From: Escherichia phage JLBYU08 | Reading direction: 5' to 3' (one strand) | DNA: 64,000 bases | Sequence record: OK272482.1 | Shown here: one piece after another, positions 15,776 to 49,699 of the stretch | Layout: each line of letters begins with the position of its first letter | How positions within the stretch are numbered: position 1 is the first letter of the stretch | The notes under the pieces: model-generated | Database searches by the model: none | Seen by the model: only the letters and a program-made list of their open reading frames with translations | What the model was told of the DNA's origin: nothing | Program-made: the position numbers and the translations under genes

Positions 15776-16054
15776 ATGAGCTGCGAAAAATCTTTTTTCA
15801 TCATCATTTACGGTAAGGATAACTGCCCACATTGTGTCAGAGCAAAAGAATTTGCAATCAGCAAAGGTCTGCCTTTTGTATATAAGACACTTGGCGAGGG
15901 ATACACAAAAGAAGAGCTTATTGAGAAGTGTAGTCCAATCGTCCCCAGAACGTTGCCGCAGATCTTCTTAGAAAGCGATCTTGACAGTATCCATATAGGC
16001 GGTGCCGACGATTTCATCTCTTTTGTTAAGAATGGTTTTGGAGAGAAAAAGTGA
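15776..16054 (+). CDS. glutaredoxin/thioredoxin-like redoxin
   Basis: CPHC active site in MSCEKSFFIIIYGKDNCPHCVRAKE; sits between nrdB and nrdD. Confidence 0.75.
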   Translation: MSCEKSFFIIIYGKDNCPHCVRAKEFAISKGLPFVYKTLGEGYTKEELIEKCSPIVPRTLPQIFLESDLDSIHIGGADDFISFVKNGFGEKK

Positions 16055-18174
16055 AAGTTGTAAAACGGGACGGTAGAGAAGAGTTCTATAACGGAATTAA
16101 GGTGATCAAGGCGGCAGAGTCCGCCTTACTTGAGTCTGGACATACTGAAGAAGAAGCTTACCGGATCGCTTGTGCGGTTAATGAAGTTGTTGCTAACAAT
16201 CTACCAACCGACCAGTGCACGATCTCTGTAAAAAATATCCATATCCTTGTTGAAGATGCTCTTATGGATATGGGTTTAAAATGTGCAGCCAGAGAATACA
16301 TCCAGTATAGACAGACAAGAGATAATAACAGAGAGGCAGGTGGAAAACTGCTTGCAGATATTAGTGGCTTCTTGGATCGAACTTGTGATGAATTTACAAA
16401 AGAAAACGCAAATAAGCCTACCAATCATGTACACACTCATCGTGACCTGCTTGCAGGCATCCTTAGCAAACACCTTGCATCAACACAGATCCTGCCAGAC
16501 CGTGTCTCAGAAGAGCACAATAAAGGCTTCATCCATGTGCATGATCTTGACTACTTGATCAGTCCGTTAACAAACTGTTGTTTGGTAAATTATCCAGATA
16601 TGTTGGAAAACGGATTCAACATTGGTAACGCCCATGTCAGTAAGCCGAAGTCAATAGGGGTTGCAACAACAATCCTTAGCCAAATCTCTAGTGCGGTAGC
16701 TAGTGCTCAATATGGGGGTCAGACTATGAGCCATATTGATCATTATCTGGCACAGTATGCTGAGGCGACTTATGAGAAGAACCTTAAATTTTGCCAGGAA
16801 CATTGGTTGCCAGATGCTGAGACTGTTGCAATGCAGATGACAGATAAAGACGTATTTGACAGCATGCAGACTTTACTCTATCAAATCAATACGTTAACTT
16901 CTGTCAACGGGCAAACCCCATTCATCACATTAAGTTTAGGTCTGGACACCTCAGTCTTTGGTAGAATGATTACCAAAAACTACTTGAAAGTCCACAAAAT
17001 GGGTCTTGGTGAAGAACGTATCACACCTGTGTTCCCTAAAGTGTTGTTCTTCCTAGAAGAGGGTGTCAACATGAACCCTGGAGATCCTAACTATGATTTG
17101 AAACGATTAGCTCTGGAATGCTCTGCAGAGCGGATTTATCCTGACTTTGTTTCTGTTCCACTAAATCGTAAAGTGACAGGCTCGACAGATGGTAAAGTAA
17201 CGAGCATGGGTTGCCGGAGTTTTCTTAGCAAATACAATGACTTGGAAACAGGCGAGGAGAAATACCTTGGCAGATTTAACTTAGGCGTTGTTAGCCTTAA
17301 TCTGCCAATGATTGCGGCAAAAGCTAAAACGGAAGGTGTTGATTTCTTTGCAGTTCTTGACGAATACCTAGATCTTGCATACGAGGCTCACCTTGTAAGG
17401 GTTGATCGTCTAAAAGGGACAAAGGCAGGGCAGAACCCTATCATGTGGTGTGAAGGCGCTCTTGCTCGCCTGGACCCTGAAGAGAGTATTGATAAACTCT
17501 TCTACGACGGGTACGCTTCCATCAGTATTGGGTATATTGGTGTGTATGAAACCTGTCAGATTTTGGGCAGGGAGGGTGACAAGGCTTTAGCTCTTGGAAT
17601 ACTTCAGCACATGAGAGATGCTTGTGAGAGATACAAGAAGGAAAGTAGACTAGCGTTTAGCTTGTACGGCACCCCTTCTGAGAGTCTATGCTATAAAGCT
17701 GCAACCTGTCTGGATCGTGAATATCCTGAAGTGTTGAAGCACGAGCATGAATATCTCACCAACAGTTTCCATCAGCCAGTATGGATCAATAGCTCTCCTT
17801 TTGATAAGTGGGAGTATGAGGAAGGTTTTGCTATGATCTCCTCTGGTGGCAACATCGGATACGTAGAGACACCAAATCTGAAAAAAAACTTAGATGCTTT
17901 GGAAGCTCTTGTTGATTTCGGATATAAACACATTATGTATTTTGGTATCAACCAGCCTGTGGATAAATGTCTCAAGTGTGGTTTCTCTGGTGAGTTCAGT
18001 GCAACAGCTAAAGGCTTTGTATGCCCAGAGTGTGGAAACCATGAAGAGGGAACGATCAGCGTAATTCGACGTGTGTCTGGATACCTTTCCAGTCCTAACT
18101 CTCGTCCTTACAATAAAGGTAAGCAAGCGGAAGTTATCGAGCGAGTTAAGCACTACGGAAGTTGTGGTTGCTGA
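16051..18174 (+). CDS. nrdD: anaerobic ribonucleotide reductase class III
   Basis: N-terminal ATP-cone, C-terminal glycyl-radical motif RRVSGYL and zinc ribbon CLKCG...CPECG. Confidence 0.9.
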   Translation: MKVVKRDGREEFYNGIKVIKAAESALLESGHTEEEAYRIACAVNEVVANNLPTDQCTISVKNIHILVEDALMDMGLKCAAREYIQYRQTRDNNREAGGKLLADISGFLDRTCDEFTKENANKPTNHVHTHRDLLAGILSKHLASTQILPDRVSEEHNKGFIHVHDLDYLISPLTNCCLVNYPDMLENGFNIGNAHVSKPKSIGVATTILSQISSAVASAQYGGQTMSHIDHYLAQYAEATYEKNLKFCQEHWLPDAETVAMQMTDKDVFDSMQTLLYQINTLTSVNGQTPFITLSLGLDTSVFGRMITKNYLKVHKMGLGEERITPVFPKVLFFLEEGVNMNPGDPNYDLKRLALECSAERIYPDFVSVPLNRKVTGSTDGKVTSMGCRSFLSKYNDLETGEEKYLGRFNLGVVSLNLPMIAAKAKTEGVDFFAVLDEYLDLAYEAHLVRVDRLKGTKAGQNPIMWCEGALARLDPEESIDKLFYDGYASISIGYIGVYETCQILGREGDKALALGILQHMRDACERYKKESRLAFSLYGTPSESLCYKAATCLDREYPEVLKHEHEYLTNSFHQPVWINSSPFDKWEYEEGFAMISSGGNIGYVETPNLKKNLDALEALVDFGYKHIMYFGINQPVDKCLKCGFSGEFSATAKGFVCPECGNHEEGTISVIRRVSGYLSSPNSRPYNKGKQAEVIERVKHYGSCGC

Positions 18175-18237
18175 TTCTTGACAAAAGCCACAAGGATGTG
18201 GCATATTATTGACACACAGTGAGCTAGGAGGTGCAGT

Positions 18238-18354
18238 ATGTCATCAGGTATTTATAAAATTTGCAAGTGCGGCTGTAGTTGTAATCTTCGTTGGTGCAAG
18301 GCACTAGACGATTTTATTTGGCATTGCCCTAAATGTGATGCGGAGTATCTATGA
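18238..18354 (+). CDS. 38-aa zinc-ribbon micro-protein
   Basis: Strong RBS AGGAGG 8 nt before ATG; CKCGCSC...CPKCD; stop overlaps nrdG start (ATGA). Confidence 0.45.
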   Translation: MSSGIYKICKCGCSCNLRWCKALDDFIWHCPKCDAEYL

Positions 18355-18824
18355 ACATTGCTGGATACACAGAAATATCTTACACCGAAGGACCAGGTAT
18401 TAGAACTGCCTTGTGGGTATCTGGGTGCCCACACGCTTGCCATGGTTGCTTTAATCAGGCATTTTGGTCAAAAGATAAGGGGAGGAAGTTCACTGAAGAA
18501 GACTTGCAAAAAATCTTGTCAGATTTAGATAACCCGTTTGTGTGCGGTATCTCTCTACTGGGTGGAGAACCCTTAGCATACTATAATGAGCCAGATATTA
18601 TTAGCCTGATGGAGAAAATTAAGGAAAAATTTGGTGACAAGAAAACTATTCTTGTATATACTGGGTTCACATTTGACCATATCTCTAGTGATGTTCTTAA
18701 ACTGGCTGATATCATCATTGACGGTAAGTATGTAAAAGATTTACCAACCAAGAAACCGTTCCGAGGCAGTGATAACCAAAGAATGTTTAAAAAAGTATCA
18801 GGCGGTTGGGTTCAGGTAGACTAG
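18351..18824 (+). CDS. nrdG: anaerobic RNR activating enzyme (radical SAM)
   Basis: CPHACHGCFN cluster motif; directly after nrdD. Confidence 0.85.
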   Translation: MNIAGYTEISYTEGPGIRTALWVSGCPHACHGCFNQAFWSKDKGRKFTEEDLQKILSDLDNPFVCGISLLGGEPLAYYNEPDIISLMEKIKEKFGDKKTILVYTGFTFDHISSDVLKLADIIIDGKYVKDLPTKKPFRGSDNQRMFKKVSGGWVQVD

Positions 18825-18827
18825 TTG

Positions 18828-18857
18828 TTGACAAAGCTTTGTTGAGTTGGTTATAAT
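18828..18857 (+). promoter_or_regulatory. sigma70-like promoter (TTGACA-N17/18-TATAAT)
   Basis: AGTTGTTGACA -35 context shared with promoter at 20219. Confidence 0.55.
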
Positions 18858-18886
18858 TGCCGTAATGAAAGCAGAGGAGGTGCCAA

Positions 18887-19000
18887 ATGGCTAAAAAAGC
18901 CTTGAAGAAGGCGTACAAGAAAGAGATTGCGCTTGAGCTTAAGAAAAAACACAAGCGCGAAAAGAAACATCATGAAGATGAAGAGGGGGTGCAACAGTGA
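18887..19000 (+). CDS. small basic protein (37 aa)
   Basis: RBS GAGGAGG before ATG 18887; MAKKALKKAYKK... Confidence 0.4.
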   Translation: MAKKALKKAYKKEIALELKKKHKREKKHHEDEEGVQQ

Positions 19001-19347
19001 CACAAGAACGTATCGATTTGGCTAATAAGTTTGTAGATCTCATTTTGCCACGGTTAGTTACTCAACATGCAGATGCTATTTCTACTAATCTTGATGGCTT
19101 ACGCCTAATGCTGAATCGCACAGATGACCCTCGTATTCGGGCTGATTTAGAAGCCTCTGCCAACAAACTGGAAAAGTTCTTGCAAGTAGACACGCAAGAA
19201 GCCTTGCACAAGATTATGGTGGAAGGTTTCTCTAAAGAATTTACCATTAAAGAGCTTAAGGAGCTGATCCACCAAGAAGAGATGAATATCCGAGTTCAGG
19301 CTGTTGCAAGCAGCATGGAAGCGGCTATTGAAAAACTGTTGCAGTAA
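18997..19347 (+). CDS. hypothetical protein
   Basis: 116-aa ORF, predicted helical. Confidence 0.45.
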   Translation: MTQERIDLANKFVDLILPRLVTQHADAISTNLDGLRLMLNRTDDPRIRADLEASANKLEKFLQVDTQEALHKIMVEGFSKEFTIKELKELIHQEEMNIRVQAVASSMEAAIEKLLQ

Positions 19348-49447: not shown

Positions 49448-49699
49448 TTACAGGTTACTCCAGTATAATCGGCATTTACATTTTGGGCAATGAGGTTCTT
49501 TTATGTAATAACCATCAGTCTTTGGAACACTTTTTGGTGCAGTTTTAAGATTGTACCTGGTAAAACATCGGAAGCAGGTTACCTCTCCCACCTGTTGATC
49601 GTTGATCCACTCACCAGAGTAAAGCTCTTTCTTGTTTCTCATAATTCTCTCCCAAATCCTCTGCAATCTTATACCAAAATCTCCAGCCAGAAAGCACAC
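49448..49699 (-). CDS. zinc-ribbon protein
   Basis: CFRC ... CPKCKC Cys pairs. Confidence 0.4.
   Translation of the reverse strand: MCFLAGDFGIRLQRIWERIMRNKKELYSGEWINDQQVGEVTCFRCFTRYNLKTAPKSVPKTDGYYIKEPHCPKCKCRLYWSNL

Follow-up and report, generated by a model that had tools for sequence, protein, structure and literature searches.

The locus considered here raises the question of whether a very short open reading frame, lying between the genes for an anaerobic ribonucleoside-triphosphate reductase and its activase, encodes a protein and, if it does, whether that protein serves the neighbouring enzyme. It is located in a stretch of 64,000 nucleotides from Escherichia phage JLBYU08 (sequence record OK272482.1), which is referred to as the window. 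The window stems from an rV5-like myovirus of the genus Vequintavirus. Over positions 17600-19000, it shares 99.9% identity with Escherichia phage EdH4 and 96-98% identity with dozens of further rV5-like records. As evident from Table 1, the layout is as originally predicted: an open reading frame for 38 amino acids, hereafter termed micro-ORF, is preceded by an AGGAGG ribosome-binding site, and its stop codon overlaps the start codon of nrdG in an ATGA motif. All of these elements were read directly from the sequence.

Table 1. Features of the micro-ORF locus (positions are those of the window).
Feature	Positions	Strand	Description and basis
nrdD, anaerobic ribonucleoside-triphosphate reductase	16051..18174	+	ORF and annotation of homologous records
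Sigma-70-like promoter candidate	18178..18207	+	TTGACA, 18 nt, CATATT; TG before second hexamer
Stem-loop GCCACA-AGGA-TGTGGC	18187..18202	none	6-bp stem, between the two hexamers of the candidate promoter
Shine-Dalgarno sequence AGGAGG	18226..18231	+	Read from sequence; 6 nt 5' of micro-ORF ATG
Micro-ORF	18238..18354	+	ATG start, 38 codons, product MSSGIYKICKCGCSCNLRWCKALDDFIWHCPKCDAEYL; seven invariant cysteines; member of phrog_20137
GGAG in micro-ORF codons Ala35-Glu36	18342..18345	+	5 nt 5' of nrdG ATG
ATGA start/stop overlap of micro-ORF and nrdG	18351..18354	+	TGA at 18352-18354, nrdG ATG at 18351-18353
nrdG, class III RNR activase (radical SAM)	18351..18824	+	Fer4_12 E = 4e-42; Radical_SAM E = 1e-9; phrog_626

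Both the AGGAGG sequence and the block containing the candidate promoter were kept in rV5 and L006 as well as in the window. In typing phage 14 (TP14), which carries a homing-endonuclease-like gene upstream, AAGGAG was found in place of AGGAGG. The candidate promoter begins 4 nt past the stop codon of nrdD and matched the consensus at 10 of 12 positions in a consensus scan. At the position of the stem-loop, L018, a member of a related lineage, has TGCACA-AGGA-TGTGCA followed by CTTTTT. Comparison of TGCACA/TGTGCA in L018 with GCCACA/TGTGGC in the window indicated that the stem was kept via paired changes. At the other end of the micro-ORF, the junction ATGA(A/C/T)AT was common to three nrdG alleles and a DNA ligase gene. 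Judging from its sequence and position, the GGAG in the last codons of the micro-ORF is probably the ribosome-binding site of the gene downstream. It is annotated as the nrdG ribosome-binding site in the record of Murica phage, and it is also retained in copies of the micro-ORF that are coupled to the DNA ligase gene, where the codons are ACGGAGTAT. Translational coupling to nrdG had been predicted as well. The layout that this requires is in place, the ATGA overlap being accompanied by a GGAG 5 nt before the ATG; the coupling itself is what we infer from that layout.

The micro-ORF is a genuine phage protein gene and is strongly conserved. A selection test compared ten different DNA versions, which came from phages in GenBank, from IMG/VR, from metagenomes, and from Logan assemblies. 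Pairwise dN/dS values (Nei-Gojobori) ranged from 0.03 to 0.28, and the differences were mostly synonymous, third codon positions accounting for 21 of the 33 variable sites. For the most divergent copy, L005, dS was saturated and dN did not exceed 0.12. With ratios this low and change that was mostly synonymous, the claim of a real micro-protein gene was upheld. The seven cysteine residues were invariant across 12 variants of the micro-protein, as were N16, L17, R18, W19, D24, D25, W28, P31, E36, Y37, and L38. The N terminus was variable: forms of 36, 38, and 41 amino acids were observed in addition to a form of 53 or 54 amino acids with a Lys/Glu-rich extension. An RNA element rather than a gene was considered and rejected. 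No Rfam family matched over the micro-ORF region, and the RNA fold of the region was no better than that of shuffled sequence (z = -0.37).

The micro-ORF had been thought to be unannotated. This was not the case, since an identical protein is already present as a CDS in many GenBank entries under the name “hypothetical protein” (e.g. bas49_0184, QXV78086.1, of phage EmilHeitz). The protein matched phrog_20137 (PHROGs v4) over residues 1-38 versus profile positions 1-38 of 38 with an E value of 4.7e-30, and many of the deposited CDSs of Vequintavirus genomes are 100% identical to it. UniProt entry A0A9E7SGM6 from phage A51.2 belongs to the same family, and a homologue of 94% identity is contained in UniProt/BFVD. 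The label “ribonucleotide reductase” assigned by PHROG and RefSeq was unsupported by our searches and looks like a name transferred from the neighbouring genes. Some records list “putative minor capsid protein” CDSs over the same stretch, which we take to be a possibly equally unsupported label. The micro-ORF is therefore ordinary as a gene, given that the identical protein has been deposited many times and a PHROG family exists, and the window adds no new element. It is catalogued already. A literature search, which included rV5 together with nrdG, Vequintavirus transcriptomes, small phage zinc ribbons, and ZifS, revealed no paper on the micro-ORF, and the literature searched contained neither an experiment on the micro-protein nor a proteomic hit or a ribosome footprint for it.

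The family proved to be small. An alignment-based protein search returned 13 close family members and nothing else. With an HMMER profile run against 1.84 billion representative proteins, the family was recovered together with one spurious tandem-repeat protein of 248 amino acids. No relative of the micro-protein was detected in bacterial and archaeal genomes (one each for 185,579 species). A scan of JGI metagenomes located the family on five rV5-like contigs and on no others. A metagenome match on a high-GC bacterial contig was false, being out of frame inside larger ORFs.

The position of the gene suggests that the micro-protein might work with NrdG, either that of the phage or that of the host, as an accessory subunit or as a regulator, for example by docking in the manner of the Zn(Cys)4 ribbon at the C terminus of NrdD or by competing with this ribbon. 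In NrdD, this ribbon adjoins the glycyl-radical loop. NrdD of the window has its own C-terminal CxxC...CPxC zinc ribbon (region 17957-18043, CLKCG...CPECG), the coding sequence of which precedes the micro-ORF by about 200 bp within their common operon. In agreement with a role of this kind, the micro-ORF was always situated between nrdD and nrdG in the approximately 119 Vequintavirus records, and junction-specific searches showed it to be ATGA-coupled to nrdG in 85 records. Using hhalign, both knuckles of the micro-protein were paired with those of the NrdD ribbon at a probability of only 10.7% and an identity of 25%, a likeness at the level of motifs only. Derivation of the micro-protein from the NrdD ribbon is unsupported at this hhalign probability, and no sign of competition was seen either.

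The distribution of the micro-ORF argued against an NrdG partner. By tblastn, the micro-protein was detected in 121 of 50,697 phage records, all of which were Vequintavirus except two records of the Vectrevirus ACG-C91. An NrdG homologue is encoded in 2,113 phage records, of which only about 119, all from one genus, carried the micro-ORF. Among 53 diverse nrdG loci from IMG/VR, the micro-ORF was present in just two, both Vequintavirus; in most of the other loci, nrdD abutted or overlapped nrdG directly. L018 and L020, which represent a related uncultured 139-kb lineage with an NrdG of 63-64% identity, showed the order nrdD, hairpin, Shine-Dalgarno sequence, nrdG, and the nrdD-nrdG interval was devoid of the micro-ORF. 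One group among the other nrdG loci (L044-046) had a Cys-rich ORF, distinct from nrdD, coupled to nrdG, and in one further locus a small Cys-rich ORF was located 143 nt upstream of nrdG. These cases gave no specific sign that zinc-ribbon ORFs accompany nrdG in general, L044 itself containing several such ORFs.

The junction-specific searches also revealed 33 Vequintavirus records, rV5 among them, with an rV5-type arrangement, in which the micro-ORF is not coupled to nrdG. In rV5, the micro-ORF is intact and 92% identical and terminates with TAA. Next come ORF115, ORF116, and a different nrdG allele with only 53% identity, which is ATGA-coupled to ORF116 instead of the micro-ORF. Conservation upstream of nrdG in related phages, proposed as a check of the original prediction, was seen in the approximately 119 Vequintavirus records; the coupling was missing from 33 of them, and the related lineage L018/L020 was without the micro-ORF altogether. 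Moreover, the micro-protein was 84-97% identical beside three NrdG alleles that were only 53-57% identical to each other. As it stayed nearly constant beside such divergent alleles, there was no co-variation with NrdG.

Further evidence came from the podoviruses. Vectrevirus ACG-C91, an SP6/K1E-like podovirus, encodes a homologue of the micro-protein with 36 amino acids. The gene is located between those for a nucleotide kinase and a DNA ligase and is ATGA-coupled to the latter. No ribonucleotide reductase gene is annotated in the complete genome of ACG-C91. Further sequencing runs yielded podovirus contigs, 44-45 kb in length, with a two-residue variant of this micro-protein. In the two contigs examined, L070 and L071 (Logan assemblies of two runs), the ligase-coupled arrangement matched that of ACG-C91 over 6 kb. 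Compared with ACG-C91, the ligase gene showed 92% nucleotide identity, and the micro-ORF differed by three synonymous and two non-synonymous codons. From this divergence it is deduced that the micro-ORF was kept while the podovirus sublineage diverged. The similarity between the myovirus and the podovirus copies extended from the ATG to ATGAAYAT. The micro-ORF has moved between phage families.

Other Vectreviruses carry a different 38-aa CxxC...CxxC ORF in the same slot, e.g. UTI89UKE2_025, MTCPNCGSKETEHVVMSDTYHFYFCHSCDTTIEEEEAV. This K1E/SP6-type ORF resembles the rV5 type in its length class, its slot between kinase and ligase genes, and its ATGA overlap with the ligase start, but it has four cysteines compared with seven in the rV5-type protein. 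It gave sub-threshold matches to generic zinc-ribbon models and to models of the Lar type (TIGR03655/PF14354; E = 4e-4 and 20.6 bits with a cut-off of 39.6), whereas the rV5-type protein gave none, also when compared specifically with the Lar-type restriction alleviation models TIGR03655/PF14354. Homology between the two slot-mates is unsupported, just seven columns being aligned by hhalign. In ACG-C91 and in L070/L071, the rV5-type protein replaces the K1E-type ORF, ORF for ORF.

Because the micro-ORF also precedes genes other than nrdG, the micro-protein is probably not a dedicated NrdG partner. A member of the class III RNR system would be expected to co-occur with nrdG, to be present solely where the enzyme is encoded, and to be coupled to nrdG throughout, and the micro-ORF showed none of the three. 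E. coli encodes its own nrdDG, so the podovirus copies of the micro-protein could act on the host enzyme. With the family nearly confined to one genus of NrdG-encoding phages, uncoupled from nrdG in 33 records, and coupled to ligase where RNR is unannotated, the proposed accessory subunit or regulator of NrdG is improbable.

The nrdD-nrdG interval is a hotspot for mobile elements. Directly 5' of the micro-ORF, TP14 carries a homing-endonuclease-like gene of the T5orf172/DUF723 type (386 aa) and L005 carries an HNH_3 homing-endonuclease gene. In EmilHeitz, a homing endonuclease gene resides within an intron of nrdD. The micro-ORF came through each of these rearrangements intact; its upstream region was new, and it had a Shine-Dalgarno sequence of its own. 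Such surroundings suggest that the micro-ORF might be mainly selfish, a passenger of this hotspot of recombination, which would be spread by homing endonucleases or protect against them and bring little benefit to the phage. The endonuclease genes would be in line with this idea, as would the mosaic of nrdG alleles around the micro-ORF, its exchange, exactly ORF by ORF, between phage families that are unrelated, and the difference of its 5' end and N-terminal tail between copies that follow an endonuclease gene and copies that do not. However, the micro-protein has no nuclease domain, and the micro-ORF was present in all Vequintavirus records found. In ACG-C91, it adjoins the nucleotide kinase gene, with no endonuclease gene immediately upstream. 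Furthermore, the strong purifying selection on its amino acids points to a function of the micro-protein itself. A selfish passenger is thus considered very unlikely.

The micro-protein was originally described as having four cysteine pairs. It actually contains seven cysteine residues, C9, C11, C13, C15, C20, C30, and C33, with CPKC as the sole canonical CxxC knuckle. This second knuckle is invariant, whereas the first reads CKC in the window and CK[HD]C in the variants of 41 and 53/54 amino acids. The whole N-terminal motif is CxCxCxC in the window form and CxxCxCxC in the longer variants. Since His29 alternates with Tyr, it is not an obligatory ligand. Three cysteines are in excess of the need of a Cys4 site.

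Fold and metal binding were deduced from a shallow alignment of 12 close relatives. AlphaFold2 models based on the family alignment predicted a beta-hairpin core, both for the 38-aa form (pLDDT 64.7) and for the 41-aa CxxC form (pLDDT 78.3, core approximately 85). The solved structures nearest to the predicted fold were zinc ribbons, i.e. ASFV C122R/Rpb9, the C-terminal ribbons of topoisomerase I, ZifS, TFIIS, and L37Ae, with Z values not above 3.6 and E values above 1. Scores for a protein of 40 residues are inevitably weak, and the zinc-ribbon fold is therefore plausible, not proven. The predicted beta-hairpin core with its CPxC knuckle superposed at 1.0-1.8 Å over 27-35 residues on those of Rpb9/TFIIS/ASFV C122R, topoisomerase I ribbons, L37Ae/eL43, and ZifS (TTHA0897, PDB 8yoz). 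The second knuckle of one eL43 sequence is identical to the IWHCPKC segment of the micro-protein; a profile search of the PDB (E up to 10) resulted in motif-level matches only, of which this ribosomal protein is an example. The micro-protein differs from the ribbons of nucleic-acid enzymes in the lack of a profile match, in the CxC of its first knuckle in the window form, in three extra invariant cysteines, and in being free-standing at 38 amino acids. We know of no binding of the micro-protein to a polymerase or ribosome.

Searches up to E = 10 yielded no Pfam family for the micro-protein and L37ae as the sole NCBIfam entry (E = 4.7); no curated zinc-ribbon model was matched. In view of this result and of the atypical first knuckle, the micro-protein is described as zinc-ribbon-like, with no Pfam assignment. 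It probably binds a metal, which is likely to be zinc.

A redox-active protein of the rubredoxin-like Fe(Cys)4 or small Fe-S type, delivering electrons to the radical-SAM enzyme or another redox enzyme, was also considered. The micro-protein shares with rubredoxins its small size, a CxxCG knuckle (in the 41- and 54-aa variants), a CPxC knuckle, and an aromatic residue before the second knuckle. The CxxCG...[W/Y]-x-CPxC knuckles and the segment DD-x-IW-x-CP resemble the C-terminal motif of rubredoxins. Seven cysteines exceed the need of one zinc site, and the cluster of the neighbouring NrdG requires one-electron reduction. These features are opposed by the searches, as neither the rubredoxin family PF00301 nor any other such family in Pfam or NCBIfam was matched even at E = 10. 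In addition, the loop between the knuckles is shorter, with a spacing of about 18-19 residues (18 from C11 to C30) compared with about 29 in rubredoxins, and extra cysteines are present. The same protein occurs beside DNA ligase in phages without annotated RNR, and rubredoxins do not figure among its nearest structures, which are the zinc ribbons of enzymes acting on nucleic acids. A redox carrier is consequently regarded as highly improbable. A mere translational leader, which would deliver ribosomes to the downstream gene and whose peptide would be irrelevant, could explain why an ATGA overlap and an internal GGAG precede both nrdG and DNA ligase, but it is close to refuted by dN/dS values far below 1, by the invariance of seven cysteines and 16 other residues, and by the 33 genomes in which an intact micro-ORF has TAA as its stop codon and no gene begins there.

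The reading that we prefer, with a probability of roughly 0.55, is that the micro-ORF constitutes a phage gene in its own right, autonomous and horizontally portable, which encodes a metal-binding micro-protein of 36-54 residues whose partner is not specifically NrdG. The coding and portability components of this reading are close to certain. The micro-protein would consist of a zinc-ribbon-like beta-hairpin core, in which the C9/C11 knuckle and the CPxC knuckle with C30 and C33 probably provide a Cys4 site. C13, C15, and C20 could form a second or a shared metal site. Most likely, it would act as a small module binding a partner that E. coli offers to an rV5-like myovirus and to an SP6/K1E-like podovirus alike. 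This partner might be a host protein or an enzyme handling nucleic acids rather than the phage NrdG specifically, although this is a guess. Expression would be driven from the strong Shine-Dalgarno sequence of the micro-ORF itself within an operon for nucleotide metabolism that is presumably early or middle. With its terminal GGAG and its stop/ATG overlap, the cassette can precede a gene without blocking the translation of that gene. This layout would explain its position before nrdG in most Vequintaviruses and before DNA ligase in a Vectrevirus sublineage.

A broader proposal is that there is a class of interchangeable zinc-ribbon micro-genes of 36-54 codons, with the seven-cysteine micro-protein as one example. 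Such genes would pass from one coliphage to another, unrelated one as precisely delimited ORFs, dock by ATGA on the start codons of genes of nucleotide or DNA metabolism, supply the ribosome-binding site, and share a target in the host or in replication. This generalisation is tentative and on the whole unlikely. A sharper version of it, according to which the micro-protein would mimic the C-terminal zinc ribbon of NrdD and modulate the activation of class III RNR including that of the host, is less likely still.

For annotation, the value of the case is that the neighbourhood alone would wrongly suggest an NrdG subunit. If the partner is identified, the micro-protein would represent a compact binder that is easy to synthesise. 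In evolutionary terms, a myovirus genus and a podovirus genus exchanged a gene of 110 bp whose start and stop codons mark the limits of the exchange. On the podovirus side, it took the place of a different zinc-ribbon micro-ORF, and its stop codon still overlaps the start of the gene that follows. The most interesting point is this ORF-precise exchange of a micro-gene cassette between unrelated coliphages.

The gene coupled to nrdG by an ATGA overlap in rV5-type genomes is ORF116, and the slot just 5' of nrdG therefore holds differing small genes across genomes. Podoviruses of the K1E/SP6 type carry a 38-aa CxxC...CxxC micro-ORF of their own, whose stop overlaps the DNA ligase start in the same ATGA fashion; models for Lar-type restriction-alleviation proteins and for generic zinc ribbons both matched it, below threshold in each case. 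In the Vectrevirus ACG-C91 and the Logan podovirus contigs L070 and L071, this micro-ORF is replaced by the rV5-type ORF. The nrdD-nrdG interval of some relatives contains homing-endonuclease genes, and in phage EmilHeitz such a gene lies in an intron that splits nrdD itself.

Two damaged copies of the seven-cysteine micro-protein were also observed. The variant P0013, from an ENA contig of 1,473 bp, is a chimera in which residues 1-20 of the micro-protein run into the C-terminal end of a protein resembling rV5 ORF116. In P0003, from phage vB_Eco_Alma, a frameshift after ...CPECDA yields a 25-residue tail instead of the C-terminal EYL.

The PHROG label of phrog_20137, to which the micro-protein belongs, is "ribonucleotide reductase", and features bearing this name or "putative minor capsid protein" overlie the micro-ORF in some phage records (matches H36, H55, H72, H87, and H113). 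Neither name found support in the searches run, and both appear to have been transferred from adjacent genes. Eighteen records (MG065635, MG065653, MG065658, and 15 others) are titled "Campylobacter phage" with C. jejuni as host; over the nrdD-nrdG region they are 96-98% identical to the E. coli rV5-like phages. These records appear to be mislabelled or to derive from contaminating coliphages.

A stem-loop enclosed by a promoter-like site follows nrdD. Its counterpart in the related lineage L018 reads TGCACA-AGGA-TGTGCA followed by CTTTTT; because the arms are GCCACA/TGTGGC in the window and TGCACA/TGTGCA in L018, the stem has been retained via paired changes. The structure could serve nrdD as a terminator or attenuator, or it could be an operator.

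Beyond nrdG and a candidate promoter, the stop of the 37-aa micro-ORF overlaps the GTG start of the 116-aa ORF, and the two would constitute another coupled micro-ORF pair. The 64-aa cysteine-rich ORF on the opposite strand matches Phage_zn_bind_2, and thus more than one small zinc-binding protein is predicted to be encoded in this genome.

Features at and around the nrdD-nrdG region, and small cysteine-rich ORFs elsewhere
Feature	Source	Coordinates	Remarks
Promoter-like site	Window	18178-18207	Directly 3' of nrdD
Stem-loop, GCCACA-AGGA-TGTGGC	Window	18187-18202	6-bp stem; between -35 and -10 hexamers
Stem-loop counterpart	L018	1423-1445	
nrdG allele	Window	18351-18824	
nrdG allele	rV5 (L004)	2002-2475	
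nrdG allele	Relative L005	3111-3584	
Candidate promoter	Window	18828-18857	Perfect consensus (TTGACA, 18 nt, TATAAT); 3' of nrdG
Second micro-ORF, 37 aa	Window	18887-19000	Lys/Glu-rich; phrog_7670
116-aa ORF	Window	18997-19347	GTG start; phrog_7650
64-aa ORF (CFRC...HCPKCKC)	Window	49448-49642	- strand; PF23903, E = 8e-23; phrog_4864
ORF116, 78 aa	rV5 (L004)	1769-2005	phrog_3249; "putative minor capsid protein"
38-aa CxxC...CxxC micro-ORF	Vectrevirus UTI89UKE2 (L008)	1590-1706	ATGA-coupled to DNA ligase
T5orf172/MUG113 + DUF723 gene, 386 aa	Typing phage 14 (L003)	279-1439	nrdD-nrdG interval
HNH_3 gene, 169 aa	Relative L005	2411-2920	nrdD-nrdG interval
Homing-endonuclease gene	EmilHeitz (L001)	2102-2635	Intron in nrdD

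The three nrdG alleles compared are 53-57% identical in their N-terminal two-thirds and near-identical over the last ~30 residues. This divergence at one end and near-identity at the other point to recombination breakpoints inside nrdG; on sequence comparison, the gene is a mosaic within the genus.
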